64,000 nt of DNA from an uncultured Eubacteriales bacterium (GTDB lineage Bacteria > Bacillota > Clostridia > Christensenellales > CAG-138): positions 375 through 64,374 of the forward strand of contig CADCMN010000009.1 of assembly GCA_902802575.1 (NCBI GenBank), written 5' to 3'. The position numbers and the translations under genes are program-made. This document shows positions 3,133-43,017 of the stretch, piece by piece. Position 1 is the stretch's first letter; the number at the start of each line of letters is the position of its first letter. The notes below the pieces were generated by a model. It saw only the letters and a list, made by a program, of their open reading frames with translations, was not told the DNA's origin and ran no database searches.

Positions 3133-4287
3133 TCAGATATCTACATCCCGGCTGATGTTCAGCAATATGCCCATGGACACCATGAACACCAGGAGGGAGG
3201 AGCCGCCCGCCGAAATGAAGGGCAGGGGCTGACCCGTGGTGGGCGCCAGGCCCGTGACCACGGCGATGTTGATGAACACCTGCAGACCGAACACGATGGA
3301 GATACCGGCGGCCATCAAACTGCCGTACCGGTTCCGACACTTCATGGCCACCCGCATGCCCCGATAGACGATCCAGGCGTACAGCAGGATCACGATGGCC
3401 CCGCCCACCACGCCGAACTCCTCGCAGATGATGGCGAAGATGAAGTCCGACTCGCCGTAGGTCATGTACAGGAGCTTCTGGTAGCTGTTGCCCAGGCCCT
3501 TGCCGAACCAGCCGCCGGAGCCGATGGCATAGAAGGATTGGATGAGCTGATAGCCGGTGCCCTGGGGATCCTGGAAGGGATCCCGGAAGGAGGTCAATCG
3601 GGCAAAGCGGTAGGGAGCCGCAGTGGCCAGCACGATGAACAGCACCACGCCCACGGCGCCGACGATGAGGATGTATCGCTCGTCCATACCGCCCACGTAG
3701 AGAAGGATCGCGCCGATGCCGGCCACGATCACGGCCATGGACATGTTGGGCTGGAACATGATGAGACCGGCGATGACGCCGATGACCAGCAGCATGGGGG
3801 CAAGGCCCAGAGTGAAGGTGCGCATATCGTCCTTATGGCGGGCCATGTAGGAGCACATAAAGAAGATCATGCCGAACTTGGCGATCTCCGAGGGCTGGAT
3901 GGACACACCCGCAAAGATCAGCCAGCGCTTGGCGCCGTTCAGGTTGACCGCGCCGGTGTCGCCGCTCTTACCGACGAACAGCACCATGATGAGCAGGACC
4001 ACCGAAACCACCAGAAACAGATGCCGAAGCTTGTCGAGGTAGCGATAGTTCACCTGGGACATGATGAGCATCAGGGGATAGCCGATGGCCATGTACATGA
4101 GCTGCTTGCGAAGGTAGTAGTAGCCGTCCCCGTTCTGGGTGTGGATAGCGTAGTAGTAGCTGGCGGAAAAGACCATCACGAGGCCGAAAGCACACAGGAT
4201 GGTGACGACCAGCAGGATTGAAAAATCCATGCTGCCCGTCTGCTTCTTGTAGAGGACCAGATTCCGTTTCTTTACCGCAGTCTCCAT
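3133..4287 (-). CDS. ftsW: SEDS-family peptidoglycan glycosyltransferase FtsW/SpoVE/RodA
   Basis: 384-aa polytopic membrane ORF with SEDS-like motifs (GAKRWL, QPSE, GLGNS, TGQPLPFISAGGSSL). It lies between murD and murA in the dcw cluster. Confidence 0.85.
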   Translation of the reverse strand: METAVKKRNLVLYKKQTGSMDFSILLVVTILCAFGLVMVFSASYYYAIHTQNGDGYYYLRKQLMYMAIGYPLMLIMSQVNYRYLDKLRHLFLVVSVVLLIMVLFVGKSGDTGAVNLNGAKRWLIFAGVSIQPSEIAKFGMIFFMCSYMARHKDDMRTFTLGLAPMLLVIGVIAGLIMFQPNMSMAVIVAGIGAILLYVGGMDERYILIVGAVGVVLFIVLATAAPYRFARLTSFRDPFQDPQGTGYQLIQSFYAIGSGGWFGKGLGNSYQKLLYMTYGESDFIFAIICEEFGVVGGAIVILLYAWIVYRGMRVAMKCRNRYGSLMAAGISIVFGLQVFINIAVVTGLAPTTGQPLPFISAGGSSLLVFMVSMGILLNISRDVDI

Positions 4288-6672: not shown

Positions 6673-8110
6673 CCGTTTTCTCCTGCAAATACGCCTCCAC
6701 GATCTCCCGATCGTCGAAGTGATGCTTCACGCCGTTGATCTCCTGATAGGTCTCATGACCCTTGCCCGCCACCACGATCACATCCCCGGCATGGGCCTGG
6801 TCCAGGGCATAGTGGATGGCGGCACGCCTGTCCTCAATGACCACATACGAGGCGGCGGTCCGGCGAATACCGCTCTCGATGCTGTCGATGATGGCCATAG
6901 GATCCTCGGTCCGGGGATTATCGCTGGTCACCACGGACAGATCCGCATAGCGACCGGAGATTTCCCCCATGATGGGACGCTTGCCGTGGTCCCTGTCTCC
7001 GCCGCAGCCGAAGACGCAGATCAGCCGATCCTTGGCAAAGCTCCGCGCCGTGACCAGCACGTTCTTCAAAGCATCCGGCGTATGGGCGTAGTCCACATAG
7101 ACGGCAAAGGGCCGACCGAAGGTCCTGGCCGCCTGGAGACGGCCCACCACGCAGGGAAGCTTTTCAAGGCCCTCCCGAATGGCGGTGAAGGGGATGTCCG
7201 CCGCGACCGTCAGGGCGGCCGTGCCCATGGCGTTGTACACGGAGAAAAGGCCCGAAATATGCAGGTTCACCCGCCCGTCTCCCTTGGGGGTGAACAGGTG
7301 GAAGGAGGCGCCGGCGGTGGTGATCTCGATGCTCTTGGCATAGAAATCGCCGCCCTTGTAGATGCCCATGGTCCATACGGGGCAGGGGAGCCCTTCGCTC
7401 ATGTACGCGGCGGCCGGATCGTCGTCGTTGACGATGGCCAGCTCCGTCTGGTAGAACAGCTTTTTCTTGGCGGCACGATAGGCCTCGAAGGTCTTGTGGT
7501 AGTCCAGATGGTCCTGGGTCAGGTTGGTGAACAGGGCCGCCTTGAAGCGAATGCCCGCCACCCGATTCTGCGCCAGGGCGTGGCTGGAAACCTCCATGAT
7601 GACCAGATCCACCTTGCGCTCCACCATGTGCGAAAGAAGCCGAAACAGATCCACGGACTCGGGGGTGGTGCGCTCGGTTTCCACCACCTCTTCGCCGATC
7701 AGGTTATGGATGGTGCCGATGAGGCCCACCTTGAGGCCCGCCTCCTCCGCCACCGCCTTGACCATATAGGTGGTGGAGGTCTTGCCGTTGGTGCCGGTGA
7801 CCGCCAGCATGGTCATCTTCCGCTCGGGATGATCGAAGAAGCAGGCCGCCGAACGGGCCATAGCCTCTCGCCCGTCCGCCACCAGGAGCTGGGGCACGTC
7901 GAGAGGCAGCCGCTCCTCCACGATCAGAGCCGCGGCGCCGCTGTCCACCGCCTGCTTGGCGAACCGGTGACCGTCGGTCTTCTCTCCCCGAAGGCAGCAA
8001 AACAGGGCGCCCGGCTTCACCTTTCGTGAATCGTAGGCAATATCGGTGATATCGGCCTCCCGCTGGGGAAGGCTGACGTGCAACTCTTCGGCTATCCTGG
8101 ACAACAGCAT
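6656..8110 (-). CDS. murE: UDP-N-acetylmuramoyl-L-alanyl-D-glutamate--2,6-diaminopimelate ligase
   Basis: 484 aa with VTGTNGKTST and the DNPR motif (TSDNPRTEDP) typical of meso-DAP-adding MurE. It overlaps the mraY start by 17 nt. Confidence 0.9.
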   Translation of the reverse strand: MLLSRIAEELHVSLPQREADITDIAYDSRKVKPGALFCCLRGEKTDGHRFAKQAVDSGAAALIVEERLPLDVPQLLVADGREAMARSAACFFDHPERKMTMLAVTGTNGKTSTTYMVKAVAEEAGLKVGLIGTIHNLIGEEVVETERTTPESVDLFRLLSHMVERKVDLVIMEVSSHALAQNRVAGIRFKAALFTNLTQDHLDYHKTFEAYRAAKKKLFYQTELAIVNDDDPAAAYMSEGLPCPVWTMGIYKGGDFYAKSIEITTAGASFHLFTPKGDGRVNLHISGLFSVYNAMGTAALTVAADIPFTAIREGLEKLPCVVGRLQAARTFGRPFAVYVDYAHTPDALKNVLVTARSFAKDRLICVFGCGGDRDHGKRPIMGEISGRYADLSVVTSDNPRTEDPMAIIDSIESGIRRTAASYVVIEDRRAAIHYALDQAHAGDVIVVAGKGHETYQEINGVKHHFDDREIVEAYLQEKTDGLGT

Positions 8111-14736: not shown

Positions 14737-15834
14737 TTAGAAAATCCGCATAGGAACGACAAGATAGAAATAGTCGTCGCTGTTCACCGGACGGATCACG
14801 CAGGGATTGATGGGGCTGTTGCACTCCAGATATACCTTGTCTTCCTCCACATTTTTGAGCACATTCATGACAAACTTGGGATTGAAAGCGATGCTCAGCC
14901 CGTCGCCCATGACCTGAGCGCTGAGCTCGTCCTCCACCTTGCCCACCACGCTCTCCGCTTTGACGGTCATATTGTCTGAGCCGATCAGGAAAAGAACGCT
15001 GTTATTGCCGTCCCGGGAAACCAGCTGAGCCCGATCCACGCTCTCCATCAGCGCATCCCGATCCACCAGGACCCGCGTCTTGCAGGATTTGGGAAGGATC
15101 CTCTTATAGTCGATATAATTGCTGTCGATGAGACGGGAGATCAGGACGGTCGCGCCCATATCCGCCTTCATATGGGTGCGGGAGAAGGTCAAGGACGCGG
15201 CGCCTTCCCCTTCCTCCAGCATACGGCCAATCTCGGTGACCGTTTTGCCGGGCACCACCACTCGCTTTTGGGGCGCTTCCTTCTCGATGGTCATGGTGTT
15301 TTTTGCAAACTGGAAGGAATCGGTGGCCACCATGGACAAGGTTTTGCCCTCGCTCTCCAGCAACACGCCGGCCAAAGCCGGATGAGCGTCGTCCAGCGCC
15401 ACGGCAAAGGTTGTGTGCTCGATGATCTTCCTGCCTTTCTCCCGATCGAAGGAGATGGTGAAGGTGTCGTCGCCATCAAAGGTCATCTGAGGAAACTCAT
15501 CATACTCCATGCATTGAAGCTGATTTACGGTTCGACCGCAGCGGATGGTCAGCGTCTGGCCGTCCATGGAGAAAAAGACGTTGCCGTCGGGAAGTTTGCG
15601 CACAATGTCGGAAAAGATGCGTCCCTTGATGACGCATTCGCCGGATTCCTCCACAATGGCTGAAAGACGGTATTCCTTCTGCAGCGTAAGATCGGAGCAG
15701 CGCAGCAGAATGCCTTCTTCATCCGCTACCAGATGGATCCCTTCCAACACGGGCATGGCGGAGCGAACGGGCAACGCTTTGCCGACAGACAGAACACCAT
15801 TTTTTAAAATGTCAGAATGTACACTAAATCTCAT
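14737..15834 (-). CDS. dnaN: DNA polymerase III beta sliding clamp
   Basis: 365 aa beginning MRFSVHSDILKNGVLSVGKALPVRSAMPVLEGIHL. It lies immediately downstream of dnaA/oriC. Confidence 0.92.
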   Translation of the reverse strand: MRFSVHSDILKNGVLSVGKALPVRSAMPVLEGIHLVADEEGILLRCSDLTLQKEYRLSAIVEESGECVIKGRIFSDIVRKLPDGNVFFSMDGQTLTIRCGRTVNQLQCMEYDEFPQMTFDGDDTFTISFDREKGRKIIEHTTFAVALDDAHPALAGVLLESEGKTLSMVATDSFQFAKNTMTIEKEAPQKRVVVPGKTVTEIGRMLEEGEGAASLTFSRTHMKADMGATVLISRLIDSNYIDYKRILPKSCKTRVLVDRDALMESVDRAQLVSRDGNNSVLFLIGSDNMTVKAESVVGKVEDELSAQVMGDGLSIAFNPKFVMNVLKNVEEDKVYLECNSPINPCVIRPVNSDDYFYLVVPMRIF

Positions 15835-15930
15835 ATGCTTGACCTCACTTTATGCCAGAATAGCATGTTTTCTATGGATTCTCAACCCCTGAGCGTTCAA
15901 TTTTACAAGATGTTGAAAATTGCGCGGTGA

Positions 15931-16137
15931 GAGATAATTTTAAAATATTTATAGAAGTAGTATTAGTAGACCCTGTGTCTGGTGGGGATAAGGGGAGAAA
16001 ATTCCGCTGCATCAAAGAAAAAGACTGTGGAAGAGGCTGTGGCTTTTCTGTGGACAGGCGATGGGGTTAGTCCTGTTGTCCCCGCTGTCCATGCTGTCCA
16101 CTGTTTTTGTCCACGGCTTATCCACCGCTGTGGATGG
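15931..16137. other. oriC: oriC-like region: AT-rich unwinding tract, TAG-period DnaA-trio-like repeats, GC cluster and an array of DnaA boxes
   Basis: AT-rich GAGATAATTTTAAAATATTTATAG, then TAGAAGTAGTATTAGTAG at 15952-15969. DnaA-box-like 9-mers: TGGGGATAA 15983-15991, TGTGGAAGA 16026-16034, TGTGGACAG 16049-16057, TTGTCCACG 16107-16115, TTATCCACC 16118-16126, TGTGGATGG 16129-16137. Confidence 0.7.
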
Positions 16138-16152
16138 AGAAAGTCGCTGCGG

Positions 16153-17469: not shown

Positions 17470-17613
17470 TCGATATTCTCCCTGAGTATACTGAAAGCTT
17501 ATCTATCATAACAGAGAAAAATCCAAAAAGCAAAGGATTTTTTGGAGGAAAAAGGGATAAAAAACACCGGACAACATGTATGTAAAGGTGGAACGGTAAG
17601 CCACAATATATAG

Positions 17614-17622
17614 TTATCCACA
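17614..17622. promoter_or_regulatory. Perfect DnaA box upstream of dnaA
   Basis: TTATCCACA at 17614-17622 in the dnaA/hydrolase divergent spacer. Confidence 0.6.
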
Positions 17623-17680
17623 TAGCAAAAGACGCTGTTGATACGGGAGTGAAGCAATGATCCTTTTACAATTTCCTCAC

Positions 17681-17709
17681 TTGCGGTAGGAGAGGGTTTG
17701 CGGTATAGT
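17681..17709 (+). promoter_or_regulatory. Candidate sigA promoter for the hydrolase-DUF951-lepB operon
   Basis: TTGCGG (17681-17686), a 17-nt spacer, then TATAGT (17704-17709), followed by AAGGAG and the start codon. Confidence 0.45.
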
Positions 17710-17726
17710 ACAATAAAGGAGAATGT

Positions 17727-38376: not shown

Positions 38377-39156
38377 ATGGCAAAGTACAAAGCACTATTG
38401 ATCGATGATAACACCCAGTTCACCGAAAGCGTGAAAGGATATCTGCTGAGCCAGGATCGGTTCAGCGAGGTGGACACGGCCCAGGACGGGCGGGAAGCGC
38501 TGAATAAGCTGCGGGAGAAGACCTACGACGTGATGACCCTGGACCTCATCATGCCCAATGCGGACGGCCTGGCGGTGCTGGAGCAACTCTCGCTCCTGAC
38601 GCTGGATCCGGCTCCGGCGGTGGTGGTGATCTCCGCGTTGAAGAACGAGGCCATGGTCCGCCGCTGCTGCGCGCTGGGCGCTCGATATTATATGGTAAAG
38701 CCGGTGGACCCGGATACCATCAGCAAACGCTTGCTGGAGACGCTGGAAGGAGAGCCGGTGAAAGGGGGCGTCATGCCCTACGCCCCCACCCACCGGTCCT
38801 TCGAAGAGAAGGTCACGGCCATCTTTCTGGTGGCGGGGATCCCGGCCCACATCAAGGGCTATCACTACCTTCGGGAGGGCATCCGCCTGGTGTACAACGA
38901 CCCGGACCTCATCAACCGGATCACCAAGGAGCTGTACCCGGGCATCGCCAAGCGCTTCGACACCTCCCCCAGCAAGGTGGAGCGGGCCATCCGCCACGCC
39001 ATCGAGGTGGCCTGGACCCGGGGCAAGATCGAAAACCTCAACGCCCTCTTCGGCTACAACATCTATGGCAAGAACGACAAGCCGACGAACGGCGAGTTCA
39101 TCGCCCTCGTGGCGGACAAGCTGTTGATGGAGGAGCAGGGGAAAAAGGCGGGGTAA
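38377..39156 (+). CDS. spo0A: Sporulation master response regulator Spo0A
   Basis: The ATG at 38377 follows GAAGGAGGAGG. It has a receiver domain (LLIDDN...DVMTLDLIMPNADG) and the Spo0A-specific C-terminal domain (ITKELYPGIAKRFDTSPSKVERAIRHAIEVAWTRG...KPTNGEFIALVADKL). Confidence 0.93.
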   Translation: MAKYKALLIDDNTQFTESVKGYLLSQDRFSEVDTAQDGREALNKLREKTYDVMTLDLIMPNADGLAVLEQLSLLTLDPAPAVVVISALKNEAMVRRCCALGARYYMVKPVDPDTISKRLLETLEGEPVKGGVMPYAPTHRSFEEKVTAIFLVAGIPAHIKGYHYLREGIRLVYNDPDLINRITKELYPGIAKRFDTSPSKVERAIRHAIEVAWTRGKIENLNALFGYNIYGKNDKPTNGEFIALVADKLLMEEQGKKAG

Positions 39157-39457
39157 GCGAGGAATCTGTTGAGATCCTGCCTCCCTTCTTGAAAGAAAGG
39201 GGGATTCCAAAGAGCCTTACTTGTTCCAAACTGTCGTCTGCCGTTCCCGTTATCCCATTCGGTTTCTCTGTTTGCGCTGCTTTTGCTCTTTTTCGAAAGA
39301 GAAAAAGCGGCATATCAAAAAGGTTCACTTACAACTCTTGCAGGACGGTCCCCCCTGTCCTGCAGGGTGCCCCTAACCTCATGATCCGCGGGAGGCTGCC
39401 GCAACGGTCCTTTGCCCATGGGACCGGCGGCAGCCTTTCGCACGCATGTCCACGGCT

Positions 39458-39547
39458 TTATCCACAGCCAAAAGTGCCGTAAATCCAAGGTTTGGTGGAT
39501 AAGATGGTGGACAATGTGGATAATTTTCCCGAGGAGGCTGTGGATAA
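39458..39547. promoter_or_regulatory. Extra-origin DnaA-box cluster (3 perfect and 2 near-perfect boxes in 90 bp)
   Basis: TTATCCACA 39458-39466, GGTGGATAA 39494-39502, GGTGGACAA 39506-39514, TGTGGATAA 39515-39523 and TGTGGATAA 39539-39547. Confidence 0.75.
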
Positions 39548-39616
39548 ATGGGGGCAAATCCGAACAAACGGAAAATCCCGCAGAATGGGCATTTTTGGAC
39601 AAGTCCTCATGACGCG

Positions 39617-39645
39617 TTGACAGAGGACGCGCCTTGGGGTACAAT
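39617..39645 (+). promoter_or_regulatory. Near-consensus sigA promoter for the GT-C-like membrane protein gene
   Basis: TTGACA (39617-39622), a 17-nt spacer, then TACAAT (39640-39645). It lies about 45 nt upstream of the ATG at 39692. Confidence 0.65.
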
Positions 39646-39691
39646 GAGCGCAGCGAGGGATCCTGCAGGATGAGAAGGGAGGAACGGCAAA

Positions 39692-41056
39692 ATGGCACCA
39701 GACTATGGGTATTTCGGCACTATGGGCGCCCTGGCGCTGTTTCTTGTCGCCCTCTTTTGCCTGGATCGGCTGTGGGTCCGTGGGACGGCGCCGGAAAAAC
39801 CTTGGCCCGAGAACGAGGCGGCCGTGGGCTTTCTGCTGTTTTTGGCGAGCTTTTTGGTGCTGTACGTGCTCAACAACCATAAATTTGTCTTCTATAACAA
39901 CTACAGCTACCTGGCGGACGCTCTGCTCCACGGGCGGCTGTATGTGGACGGTATGCCGGCGTATTTGGAGTCGGTGGAATTTGGCGGCCATTCCTACATG
40001 CACTTCGCCCCCGGCCCGGCCATCCTGTGCCTGCCCTTTGTGGCCGTATTCGGCGTGTACGGGTTCAACATCGCATGGCTGTCCATGGCGCTGGGCGCGG
40101 CCAACACGGCCCTCGCCTATCGGGTGCTTCGGCAGATGGGCATCGGTCGTGATCGACGGGAGCGGATCTGGTGCGCGGCGCTGCTCACCTTCGGCACGGT
40201 CCACTGCTTTTTGGCGGCCCTGGGCCACGGCTGGTTCCTGGGGCATGTGTCCAGCTGGTTCTTCCTGTTCGTCGGCATGGTGTTCCTTACCGTACCGGAG
40301 GATAAGCGAAAGGACGTGCATCTGTTTCTGGCGGGGGTGTTCTACGGCTGCGCGGTGACCTGCCGGATGCCGAATCTGCTGGGGGCGCTGTTCTACGGGG
40401 GGTACATCCTGACCCGGTACAAGCGGGAGACCTGGATCCGATCCCTGCTGTTCTTCTGCCTGGGGGCGGCGGTGCCCGGAGGCCTGTATATGCTCTATAA
40501 CTATGCGCGCTTCGGCACCATCATGGACAAGGGCTACAATCTGACCCACCTGAAGGATCTGTTCCGGAGCCGGTATGATGAAATGCAGGAGCTGCCCAAA
40601 GGGGAGCAAATGGCGTTTCTGAAGGCGGCGGAGCAGGAGGTGGGCGGCCCGCTGCAGCTCAAGCACGTGAAGCATAACCTCTATTCCATCTTCCTGCTGG
40701 GGCCGGAGTTCACCCGGGAATACCCCTACGTGATCCCCACGCTGGCGGGGGTGTCGCTGACCCACCTGTCCCCGGCGCTCTATATGGCGATCCGAGCCCC
40801 GTACCGGCGGGACAGGCTCACCTGGTTCCTCCTGGCCACGACGGTGGCCTGCGCCGTGCCCTTCCTCATGAACTACGGGAACGGGTTCGCCCAGTTCGGC
40901 ATGCGCTACGCCATGGACTTCCTTCCCTATGTGGGGATCCTGGCCGCCATGGGCCTGACACGAACCCCTCTGCGGGGCTGGAAGGCGGCGCTGATCCTCC
41001 TGTGCATGCTCCTGAACATGTGGGGGCCGGTGTACTGGAATATCTTTTATACGTAA
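39692..41056 (+). CDS. Polytopic membrane protein, putative GT-C-fold (ArnT/PMT-like) glycosyltransferase
   Basis: 454 aa with about 11-12 TM segments and loop features reminiscent of GT39/GT83-type enzymes. The call rests on general architecture only. Confidence 0.45.
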   Translation: MAPDYGYFGTMGALALFLVALFCLDRLWVRGTAPEKPWPENEAAVGFLLFLASFLVLYVLNNHKFVFYNNYSYLADALLHGRLYVDGMPAYLESVEFGGHSYMHFAPGPAILCLPFVAVFGVYGFNIAWLSMALGAANTALAYRVLRQMGIGRDRRERIWCAALLTFGTVHCFLAALGHGWFLGHVSSWFFLFVGMVFLTVPEDKRKDVHLFLAGVFYGCAVTCRMPNLLGALFYGGYILTRYKRETWIRSLLFFCLGAAVPGGLYMLYNYARFGTIMDKGYNLTHLKDLFRSRYDEMQELPKGEQMAFLKAAEQEVGGPLQLKHVKHNLYSIFLLGPEFTREYPYVIPTLAGVSLTHLSPALYMAIRAPYRRDRLTWFLLATTVACAVPFLMNYGNGFAQFGMRYAMDFLPYVGILAAMGLTRTPLRGWKAALILLCMLLNMWGPVYWNIFYT

Positions 41057-41209: not shown

Positions 41210-41938
41210 TCACTCCGAATACTTCTCGATCATCTTCAGCGCCACGTCCAACGCCCGGCCCTTGTGCTGAGCGGAGATGCGCAGCAGATCCTCGTCGGTC
41301 ACGTCCTGGTCCATGCCTGTGGCGTACCGGGCGATGATGCCGATGGACGCGTACTTCATGCACACCTCCCGGCACAGCGGCGCCTCGGGCACCAGGGTGC
41401 TGCCGATGACCTGCGCGTCCAGGGCCCGCATCATCCGTGCCTCGGCGGCGGTCTCGTACCGGGGCCCATCCTGGGCGGCGTAGATCACCCGGCCCTCGTA
41501 GGGGATCTTCTCCGCCAGGATGATCTGCTCCAGGGTGTCCGTCATGCGGGAATCGAACACATCGTCCATGCCCGCATGCTTGACCAGCCGGTGCTCCAGG
41601 CGGAAGGAGCTGTCCCGGAACCGGGTGAAGTCGATGAAGTCGGTGATCAGGCAAAAGCTCCCCAGGCGGAAGGAGTAGTCGCAGGTGCCCATGACGGAAA
41701 TGCTGATGACGTGAGTCACGCCGCACAGGTACAGGGCGAAGATGTTGGCCCTGAAATTGGTCTCGTAGGCGTCCTCCTGAATGCAGATGCTATGCCGCGT
41801 GAGGAAATCTACTTCCTTGCCGCTGGGAAGCGTCGCATGGATGACCCGGGCGTTGCCATAGGGGGTGGTGACCACCTCGGAAGTGTGGGGAAAGGTGATG
41901 GCGTCTTCGGAGTTGCAGCCGATGATGGCAAACTTCAT
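41210..41938 (-). CDS. Divergent MTAP/purine nucleoside phosphorylase-family protein
   Basis: 242 aa with PNP_UDP_1-like blocks (VDFLTRHS, ETNFRANIFAL, GPRYETAAEARMMRALDAQVIGST). Several canonical phosphate-binding residues are substituted. It has an ATGA overlap with holA. Confidence 0.55.
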   Translation of the reverse strand: MKFAIIGCNSEDAITFPHTSEVVTTPYGNARVIHATLPSGKEVDFLTRHSICIQEDAYETNFRANIFALYLCGVTHVISISVMGTCDYSFRLGSFCLITDFIDFTRFRDSSFRLEHRLVKHAGMDDVFDSRMTDTLEQIILAEKIPYEGRVIYAAQDGPRYETAAEARMMRALDAQVIGSTLVPEAPLCREVCMKYASIGIIARYATGMDQDVTDEDLLRISAQHKGRALDVALKMIEKYSE

Positions 41939-43017
41939 TTTTTGACCTCCTCTTTCTTTTCAAAGGTATTCATAACAGCCAGCAGCAGGGCGTCCCGGTC
42001 CCGGAAGATCCCCTGTTTGATCTGCCCGTCCACAGCGGCGAAGGCCGCCACGGCTCGCCGAAGCTGATCTGCGGTCTGCTTCCGGGCGTTCTTCACGGCG
42101 ATTTGGGCGGCGTAGGGGCTGCCGGGAAGCTGCCGGGCGGCGCTGCGTGGGTCCAGCCCCCTGTCCAGATGCTCCCGGGCGGTCAGGATCAGCTTCATCC
42201 GTCCCTCTAAAAAACCGCTGAGGCTCATGGGGCTTTCCCCCCGGTCCAGAGCGTTCAGGAGCATGGCGTAGCCCTTCTTCCGTTTTCCGTCCAGCAGAGC
42301 GTCCAGCATCTCAAAGGCGTCGTATTCCGGGGAAGGCGTGACCGTCTCGTTGAGCACGGCCACCGTGACCGTACCCCCGGGGCCCGCGTAGTCCGCGGCC
42401 TTGGAGAACTCGTTCTTCAGCCGGTAGGCGTCGAAACCCACCCGATCCACCAGGGTCTGGGCCACGGCTTTGCTGAGATCCACGTTTTTCAGAGCCGATT
42501 CCCGCATCAGCATGTTCACGGCCCGCTCCATGGTCAGCTTCTCGAAGGCCACCACCCGATTCTCCGGGGCTAGGGCCTTGAAGAGCCGATTGGTTTTGGG
42601 GCACTCCCCCCGCTGGACGAACAGGACCACGGTGGTGTCCGCCATCCGAAGCAGCCGGTTCCGTTGCTCCAGAGCTTCCACCAGGGCGGCGTCCCAACTC
42701 TCCACCAGGATGAGCCTGAGCTCGTCGAAGAAGGGCAACTGGTCCGCGGCGGACAGGAGCGTCTCCGCGTCGGGGTCCCGAAGGGTCTGACAGTTCAGAT
42801 CCAGCACCCCGGGGTCCAGCAGCTTTTTCACTCGGGCGACGGCCGCCGCCTTGGTCAGTTCCTCTTCGCCGTGGAGAAGATATGGGCCCTTCAGGGAGCG
42901 ACCCTGGGTGGCCTTGTAGAATTCGGATTCGTTCACGTTCCTATGATACCACTTTGTCCGGAAAGAAACAACATATATCTTTCCCGGCGACCGCTTAGCC
43001 CCGTAAATCGACCGCAT
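41935..43017 (-). CDS. holA: DNA polymerase III delta subunit
   Basis: GPYLLHGEEELTK near the N-terminus, with HolA-like length and helical C-terminal domains. The start is uncertain (ATG 43017 or GTG 42936). Confidence 0.7.
   Translation of the reverse strand: MRSIYGAKRSPGKIYVVSFRTKWYHRNVNESEFYKATQGRSLKGPYLLHGEEELTKAAAVARVKKLLDPGVLDLNCQTLRDPDAETLLSAADQLPFFDELRLILVESWDAALVEALEQRNRLLRMADTTVVLFVQRGECPKTNRLFKALAPENRVVAFEKLTMERAVNMLMRESALKNVDLSKAVAQTLVDRVGFDAYRLKNEFSKAADYAGPGGTVTVAVLNETVTPSPEYDAFEMLDALLDGKRKKGYAMLLNALDRGESPMSLSGFLEGRMKLILTAREHLDRGLDPRSAARQLPGSPYAAQIAVKNARKQTADQLRRAVAAFAAVDGQIKQGIFRDRDALLLAVMNTFEKKEEVKK

Follow-up and report, generated by a model that had tools for sequence, protein, structure and literature searches.

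Clusters of DnaA boxes outside the replication origin (oriC) are known from Bacillus subtilis, in which six of them, five near oriC, bind DnaA stably and lead to early initiation when deleted jointly (PMC3245932; reviewed in PMC5295017). The gene contexts of these clusters differ between Bacillus species, with proximity to the origin being kept (PMC3245932). Some adjoin DnaA-regulated promoters, and the clusters have been proposed to hold or inactivate DnaA and to delay initiation. In Escherichia coli, the datA site, at which DnaA-ATP is hydrolysed, is located downstream of convergent genes (PMC5742627). Here we describe an array of DnaA boxes at positions 39446-39547 of a 64,000-nucleotide stretch of contig CADCMN010000009.1 (GenBank assembly GCA_902802575.1, an uncultured Eubacteriales bacterium of the Clostridia lineage CAG-138), hereafter the window. 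The array is positioned in the 535-nt spacer between spo0A and a downstream open reading frame (ORF), 22.0 kb from the start codon of dnaA; the spacer length and the distance agree with those given in an earlier note on this sequence. The control of replication initiation is poorly understood in Clostridia, and we know of no datA-, DARS- or Bacillus-type cluster characterised in this class. A literature search found no report of DnaA boxes clustered beside spo0A.

The array is an extra-origin DnaA-box cluster in the B. subtilis sense, being a group of intergenic near-consensus boxes outside oriC, and three measured distances (in the window and in two related loci) place it close to the origin. 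Its boxes are real and beyond chance, and their layout, orientation and chromosomal neighbourhood are conserved independently of both flanking genes. We give a probability of about 0.55 to the reading of the array as an autonomous DnaA-box cluster close to the origin, which would serve as a non-coding platform for sequestering or assembling several DnaA molecules. It resembles the B. subtilis clusters, which are likewise intergenic near-consensus boxes outside oriC of a Firmicute and mostly origin-proximal. However, the genes flanking those clusters are unconserved, whereas the array described here keeps its layout, orientation and neighbourhood down to about 54% Spo0A identity; it is also compact, with five to six boxes in about 100 bp. 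The array therefore appears to belong to a known type of cluster and to be distinctive in its unusually fixed layout and deeply conserved neighbourhood, within an uncultured lineage of Clostridia.

Box content and position relative to the origin

The array consists of a left pair of boxes and four boxes inverted relative to this pair (Table 1). The five boxes that the earlier note had listed between 39458 and 39547 (three perfect, one with one mismatch and one with two) were all recovered, and a weaker box precedes them in register. The counterpart of this weak box is TTTTCCACG in the relatives L002 and L003; L004 and L051 have lost it. The first three inverted boxes start 12 and 9 bp apart, with a weak site between two strong ones. 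This middle box is degenerate in most relatives (GGTGGACAA, TGTGGAAAT or TGTGGGTAC) and matches the consensus in L002 and L024. A counterpart of the fourth inverted box follows the third by 14-15 nt in L002-L004, L013, L015, L017, L051 and L125; in L108, L162 and L188, the box after the third comes at 5 nt instead.

The density of boxes is far beyond that of shuffled and simulated sequence, and chance is therefore no explanation for it. The window contains four perfect boxes against 0.22 expected, a count reached in none of 100 shuffles; three of them are in the array, and the fourth (17614) is the single perfect box in the region upstream of dnaA (17470-17726). With up to one mismatch allowed, the array holds four boxes per 100 bp, compared with a maximum of two, attained in 21 of 400 first-order Markov simulations. 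As had been claimed, the array is richer in perfect boxes than the dnaA-dnaN spacer (15835-16152), which contains none.

In addition to the distance in the window, the array is about 6.6 kb from dnaA in L005 (dnaA N-terminus at 312-52 of the locus) and about 12 kb away in the L008 genome, in which spo0A is 9.2 kb from dnaA and a 2.9-kb insertion is added; the distance thus varies among species. Homologues of the genes flanking spo0A in L002, L005, L007, L008, L013, L014 and L015 are found within the 64 kb of the window. In the lineage of the window, spo0A itself is only 7-22 kb from dnaA (window, L005 and L201), whereas it is far from the origin in B. subtilis; its gene dosage would therefore track initiation closely. 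We did not notice rpmH beside dnaA in the window, in which no check aimed at this gene was made.

Conservation and autonomy of the array

A Spo0A protein scan with one genome per species yielded 80 loci, and the 35 with a Spo0A identity of at least 53% were treated as the ingroup; the closest belong to rumen 'uncultured Clostridiales' metagenome-assembled genomes with 98-99% Spo0A identity. A cluster was counted where at least three boxes (at most one mismatch) lay within 100 bp and within 1 kb downstream of spo0A. Such a cluster follows spo0A in 19 of the 35 ingroup species (Spo0A identity 53-99%, GC content 39-71%) and in none of the 44 evaluable distant loci, which include Lachnospiraceae, Peptococcaceae, Alicyclobacillus and other spore-formers, so that the conservation beside spo0A that the earlier note had proposed to look for is found. 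Away from this position, only five such clusters occur in 867 kb, three of which are displaced copies of the array, located 1.8-3.5 kb downstream of spo0A behind inserted genes (L003, L008 and L034).

In 18 of the 19 species the array is located 71-466 nt past the spo0A stop codon, and in L007 it is at about 0.8 kb, across an insertion. Despite the wide range in GC content, a common layout is observed: a left box TTATNCACA, a spacer usually with an A-run, then a box, 3 nt, a weak box, 0 nt and a further box. The spacer measures 25-28 nt in 20 of 37 arrays and 36-39 nt, roughly one helical turn more, in a few; the L006-L012 clade has a 37-nt spacer and a slightly different arrangement of the tandem part. 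In every species the left box points opposite to the tandem boxes. The genus-level alignment shows the boxes as islands without variation in an intergenic region that has otherwise diverged or cannot be aligned, the latter being true of the first ~180 nt after spo0A. This retention in related but not in distant species, together with the stereotyped layout, argues that the array is under selection. A different cluster near spo0A is present in L026, in which five one-mismatch boxes (3292-3562) are located about 1.2-1.5 kb upstream of spo0A in the opposite, divergent arrangement, with no array downstream.

The left neighbour in the window is spo0A, as the earlier note had it (Pfam Spo0A_C and Response_reg). 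On the right, the ORF described there as glycosyltransferase-like does encode a polytopic protein; the enzymatic assignment is plausible but weak, with one sub-threshold NCBIfam match ('LA_3751/LA_3752 putative glycosyltransferase', E 3.5e-15, 56 bits against a cut-off of 200) and no match in Pfam and PDB sequence searches. This gene follows the array only in the genus-level relatives L002, L003, L004 and L051 and in the metagenome contig L125. Elsewhere the right-hand gene is unrelated to it and varies, and in at least six species it converges on the array (Table 1), which therefore has no promoter to control there. In addition, the metagenome contigs L108, L162 and L188, obtained from a pattern scan described below, carry the full layout (TTATACACA-26 nt-TGTGGATAAcatGGTGGACAATGTGGATAA) with no spo0A within several kb; on their left is murA, or uvrA with a membrane protein gene, and on their right ligT, followed in L162 by addB, as in L015. 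Because the right-hand gene varies and in places converges, and copies persist without spo0A, these comparisons indicate that the array is an autonomous module in a syntenic, rearranging chromosome stretch and is not strictly tied to spo0A. They likewise argue that the array is no operator of the glycosyltransferase-like gene across the clade, and that such control is not general. The gene holA (DNA polymerase III delta), which is directly against the array in L007, is located at 41935-43017 on the minus strand in the window, 2.4 kb from the array.

Table 1. Features of the array and its surroundings in the window, and right-hand neighbours of the array in other loci
Feature	Position or locus	Strand	Remarks
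Weak DnaA box ATGTCCACG	39446-39454	+	3 mismatches; 12 bp in register before first perfect box
Perfect DnaA box TTATCCACA, single 'left' box	39458-39466	+	TTATNCACA or TTTTCCACA in relatives; invariant in genus-level alignment
27-nt spacer with A-tract (gccAAAAg)	39467-39493		separates left box from inverted boxes
DnaA box, + strand reads GGTGGATAA	39494-39502	-	1 mismatch; first of three abutting inverted boxes
Weak middle box, + strand reads GGTGGACAA	39506-39514	-	2 mismatches; 12 bp after first inverted box, 9 bp before third
Perfect DnaA box, + strand reads TGTGGATAA	39515-39523	-	third inverted box; 21 bp (two helical turns) from first inverted box
Perfect DnaA box, + strand reads TGTGGATAA	39539-39547	-	fourth inverted box; 15 nt after third
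spo0A	38377-39156	+	left neighbour in most relatives; Spo0A_C and receiver domain (Pfam)
Conserved structured element between spo0A and boxes	39337-39441	+	hairpins and single-stranded stretch; outside DnaA array proper
Sigma-70-type promoter TTGACA-17-TACAAT of downstream ORF	39617-39645	+	conserved only in genus-level relatives
454-aa polytopic membrane protein, putative glycosyltransferase	39692-41056	+	right neighbour only within genus
dnaN	14737-15834	-	
Apparent origin module, dnaA-dnaN spacer	15952-15991	+	six trios, spacer accc, two abutting weak boxes; AT-rich stretch to left
dnaA	16153-17469	-	start codon 22.0 kb from array
Right-hand gene, SipL/LysM sporulation protein	L020, L023, L029, L030, L134		co-oriented
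Right-hand gene, aldo-keto reductase	L006, L009		co-oriented
Right-hand gene, GH3 hydrolase	L012		co-oriented
Right-hand gene, ZnuA	L005		co-oriented
Right-hand gene, NUDIX	L031		co-oriented
Right-hand gene, ligT-addB	L015		co-oriented
Right-hand gene, cyclase	L014		convergent
Right-hand gene, RlmI-like methyltransferase	L022, L024		convergent; L024 from partial ORF homologous to L022 gene
Right-hand gene, DUF4417	L027		convergent
Right-hand gene, M20 peptidase	L033		convergent
Right-hand gene, holA	L007, 7764-8798		convergent, directly against array

Proposed role and rival explanations

The strong-weak-strong order, the placement of the strong boxes on the same face of the helix and the inverted box across an A-tract spacer of constrained length suggest the cooperative assembly of a defined DnaA oligomer rather than binding to each box independently. 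From this arrangement we infer DnaA occupancy, cooperative filling, spacer bending and an effect on initiation. In the proposed mechanism, the consensus boxes at 39494 and 39515, two helical turns apart, would flank the weak box at 39506, with a third strong box at 39539 and the single inverted consensus box at 39458 across the 27-nt spacer. DnaA would occupy the strong boxes first, then fill the weak site cooperatively and contact the inverted box across the bent spacer. The array would be replicated shortly after initiation, and its copy number would therefore double early; the doubled array would draw DnaA from oriC, or alter the state of DnaA, thereby restraining re-initiation. This model of restraint is the one proposed for the six oriC-proximal B. 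subtilis clusters and for E. coli datA. Of the two roles that the earlier note had offered, a titration site and a DnaA-controlled promoter, the titration-type role fits the comparative data better, and promoter control does not hold as a conserved role. The deep conservation is an argument for selection acting on at least some extra-origin clusters as such, and a compact array with a conserved layout, recurring in many species, provides a concrete fragment for DnaA studies.

Several points weigh against a DnaA-sequestering cluster. It is not obvious why a passive sink should require a fixed inverted box or a spacer of constrained length, and single B. subtilis clusters are weak in effect, with reviews doubting a major role (PMC5295017). 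In about 40% of the ingroup species the array is missing beside spo0A. Three related genomes show no second cluster within 10 kb of dnaA, and in four related genomes other than that of L008 a look-up of DnaA homologues found neither spo0A nor the array at such a distance; the array is therefore dispensable or mobile in position. All relatives are uncultured metagenome-assembled genomes. Finally, in the genus of the window a strong promoter follows the array within 70 nt and travels with it, so a local transcriptional role within this genus is possible.

In a first rival explanation, DnaA bound at 39446-39547 would activate or repress the 39617 promoter, and with it the glycosyltransferase-like gene, and would tie envelope synthesis to replication status, a reading that we regard as unlikely, though worth taking seriously. 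The promoter, confirmed as the earlier note had described it, starts 69 nt past the last perfect box, and every genus-level relative retains the array, promoter, 5' untranslated region (5'UTR) and gene side by side, even L003 and L125, in which an insertion of at least 3 kb separates them from spo0A. A sigma-70-like promoter also occurs 100-250 nt after the array in other species whose right-hand gene is co-oriented, and the B. subtilis sda, ywlC and yydA clusters are sites at which DnaA regulates transcription (PMC3245932). However, the gene neighbours the array in one genus only, and in at least six species the array is located between convergent 3' ends. Moreover, the boxes are about 105-195 nt upstream of the predicted start rather than over the promoter. 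The sole box-like site near the -35 element (39594, two mismatches) was rejected as an operator, being unconserved even in the genus alignment, and a promoter-like match inside the array (TGGATA-17-GATAAT, 39496-39524) was likewise rejected, its -10 T being lost in other clades outside the genus. A cis effect on the gene to the left, spo0A, is the most interesting reading. DnaA bound just past the spo0A terminator would modulate spo0A output by way of termination or read-through, of the processing of the 3'UTR or of the local topology, such that cells about to initiate would hold back Spo0A. By analogy, the array would then serve the function of the Bacillus DnaA-Sda checkpoint, a role that we consider distinctly improbable. 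To our knowledge, Sda is confined to Bacilli. The orientation of the array is fixed, it is mostly within 0.5 kb of the spo0A stop codon, it directly follows a conserved 3'UTR or terminator structure, and it keeps the same left neighbour over deep divergence, unlike the unconserved contexts of the Bacillus clusters (PMC3245932). The sda promoter boxes, on which the analogy drawn in the earlier note was based, are similarly a DnaA-box cluster linked genetically to the sporulation decision. However, they control a promoter whose product inhibits the kinases feeding Spo0A (PMC5295017), whereas the array comes after the spo0A terminator, has no sda-like gene nearby and can exist without spo0A. The copies without spo0A in L108, L162 and L188, the insertions of 1.8-3.5 kb in L003, L008 and L034 and the absence of the array after spo0A in about 40% of the ingroup weaken this reading. 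The association with spo0A, to which the earlier note had pointed, thus reflects conserved synteny and no strict requirement for that gene. In addition, neither the promoter nor the coding region of spo0A contains conserved boxes, an antisense promoter toward spo0A was rejected, since no minus-strand promoter-like site was found in 38900-39900, and a site downstream of a terminator has no known way of regulating the gene. The frequent adjacency to spo0A near the origin offers a testable lead on the coordination of replication and sporulation without Sda.

It is very unlikely that the array is a catalytic DnaA-remodelling site like datA or DARS, in which a fixed geometry would build an oligomer that speeds ATP hydrolysis or nucleotide exchange. 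The stereotyped inverted box, the A-tract spacer (25-28 nt, or about one turn more) and the strong-weak-strong triple would suit such a site. Like the array, datA is a non-coding cluster away from oriC with a constrained geometry and a bendable interval between boxes, and it is positioned in a gap downstream of genes, as the array is in at least six species; it requires a bend between its boxes and is located in an untranscribed gap (PMC5742627). The E. coli sites DARS1 and DARS2 share with the array a three-box core with one box opposed to two tandem ones, and a layout and location conserved among relatives; the opposed boxes are the functional core of DARS (PMC6868365). The geometry, however, fits neither. 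The essential datA boxes 7, 2 and 3 have the same orientation and need an IHF site between 2 and 3 (PMC5742627), whereas the array contains an inverted box; the lineage and the DnaA regulators differ as well. In DARS, boxes I and II oppose each other at a distance of 5 bp, with box III in tandem to II (PMC6868365), compared with 25-28 nt, or 36-39 nt, in the array, which has three to four tandem boxes. No remodelling activity of this kind is known to have been described in Firmicutes. A bolder version is equally improbable: the array would be the counterpart of datA/DARS in Clostridia, a remodelling machine whose inverted box, phased A-tract spacer and strong-weak-strong triple would build a specific DnaA oligomer and change the nucleotide state of DnaA near oriC, and, being ancestrally placed after the spo0A terminator, the same assembly would gate Spo0A output. 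If true, it would constitute a cis-encoded replication-sporulation checkpoint for spore-forming Clostridia without Sda. A second or vestigial origin, or part of a mobile element, is largely refuted and retains hardly any probability. The pair ATGTCCACG-gct-TTATCCACA does resemble the oriC pair at 16107-16126, and the 18-mer likeness pointed out by the earlier note (there 16109-16125) is real apart from one extra T; the array also shares with the basal unwinding module of oriC abutting tandem boxes in a 9-12 bp register, and its three-box pattern occurs in the dnaA-dnaN spacers of other bacteria. The dnaA-dnaN spacer of the window, however, contains the repeats TAG AAG TAG TAT TAG TAG (15952-15969), which we take to be DnaA-trios (repeats of 3'-GAT-5'), a motif reportedly described by Richardson et al. 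in 2016, followed by abutting boxes at 15974-15991. Trio repeats and an AT-rich block are both present at 15925-15991, and neither was found in 39400-39620 read on both strands; the array thus lacks the trios and AT-rich element that accompany tandem boxes in an unwinding module, and it is not next to dnaA or dnaN. The GC skew changes sign in the window only at about 15.5-16 kb. Regarding a mobile element, a distant-mode search of plasmid and phage collections with 39330-39700 gave no match, and the chromosomal synteny is conserved.

Neighbouring elements and box arrays in other lineages

Three parts make up the structured element located between spo0A and the boxes: a GCAGGAC...GTCCTGC hairpin whose loop is C-rich; a single-stranded stretch, GTGCCCCTAACCTCATGATCCG, which is highly conserved and reads (A/G)TGCCCCnAACCTCAT(A/G)ATCCG across loci; and a long terminal hairpin, which stops 4-16 nt short of the boxes and shows compensatory changes in 11 of 16 stem pairs. 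The element is also found in L005 (~6795-6915, beginning ~15 nt past the spo0A stop codon), L006, L007, L009, L012, L002-L004 and L051; it has remained beside the box array in L003 and beside spo0A in L007. It is probably the 3'UTR of spo0A with its terminator, or a small RNA (sRNA); as a 3'UTR-derived sRNA, it could pair with Shine-Dalgarno sequences through its C-rich motifs. Rfam gave no match in the whole window at gathering thresholds, and only chance hairpins in E-value mode for 39100-39750.

Across 24 loci, the heptamer TGCAGGA/TCCTGCA shows an enrichment of about 8-fold (2.2 versus 0.27 per kb) at up to 300 nt from the array, and its positions in related loci are stereotyped (~115 nt before and 100-206 nt after the left box). 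At 39660-39671 of the window, in the 5'UTR of the downstream gene, it gives rise to a perfect palindrome, ATCCTGCAGGAT, and in L022 and L024 the downstream copy is a terminator stem for the convergent gene. A genome-wide repeat was rejected, since every further copy in the window falls within coding sequence (CTG-CAG-GAG). The motifs TGCATA, TGCAGGA and CATATACA were also rejected as sigma-H, -E or -K elements, their spacings and -10 matches being inconsistent and the upstream copies being arms of the terminator hairpin. In more distant species (L020, L023, L027, L031, L032 and L033), an AT-rich palindrome (TGTATATACA, CATATATG or GTATAC) is located 10-15 nt past the last box; it is absent from the genus of the window and might bind another protein or form a patch that melts easily.

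The pattern GTGGATAA-N4-GTG-N6-GTGGATAA was scanned against metagenome contigs and matched at least 120 of them, from many lineages. Among the matches listed, about 15 were in or beside dnaA-dnaN spacers, three more were 6-7 kb from dnaA, and none adjoined spo0A. The three-box module is thus generic across lineages and was rejected as a specificity test for the spo0A locus; it looks like a general way to build a high-occupancy DnaA site. The three-box arrays 6-7 kb from dnaA, in L089, L100 and L189 (GC content 0.35-0.38), are candidate origin-proximal clusters outside the lineage of the window. A different array, TTATCCACA-14 nt-TGTGGATAAggcTGTGCATGATGTGGATAA, is near-identical in four metagenome contigs (L127, L138, L160 and L181; GC content 0.59-0.65) and is positioned directly upstream of a ribosome-binding site and GTG start; the gene behind it is a candidate for DnaA control in another lineage. 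In addition, a Lachnospiraceae contig (L069, 1013-2552) carries two tandem spo0A-like genes side by side.

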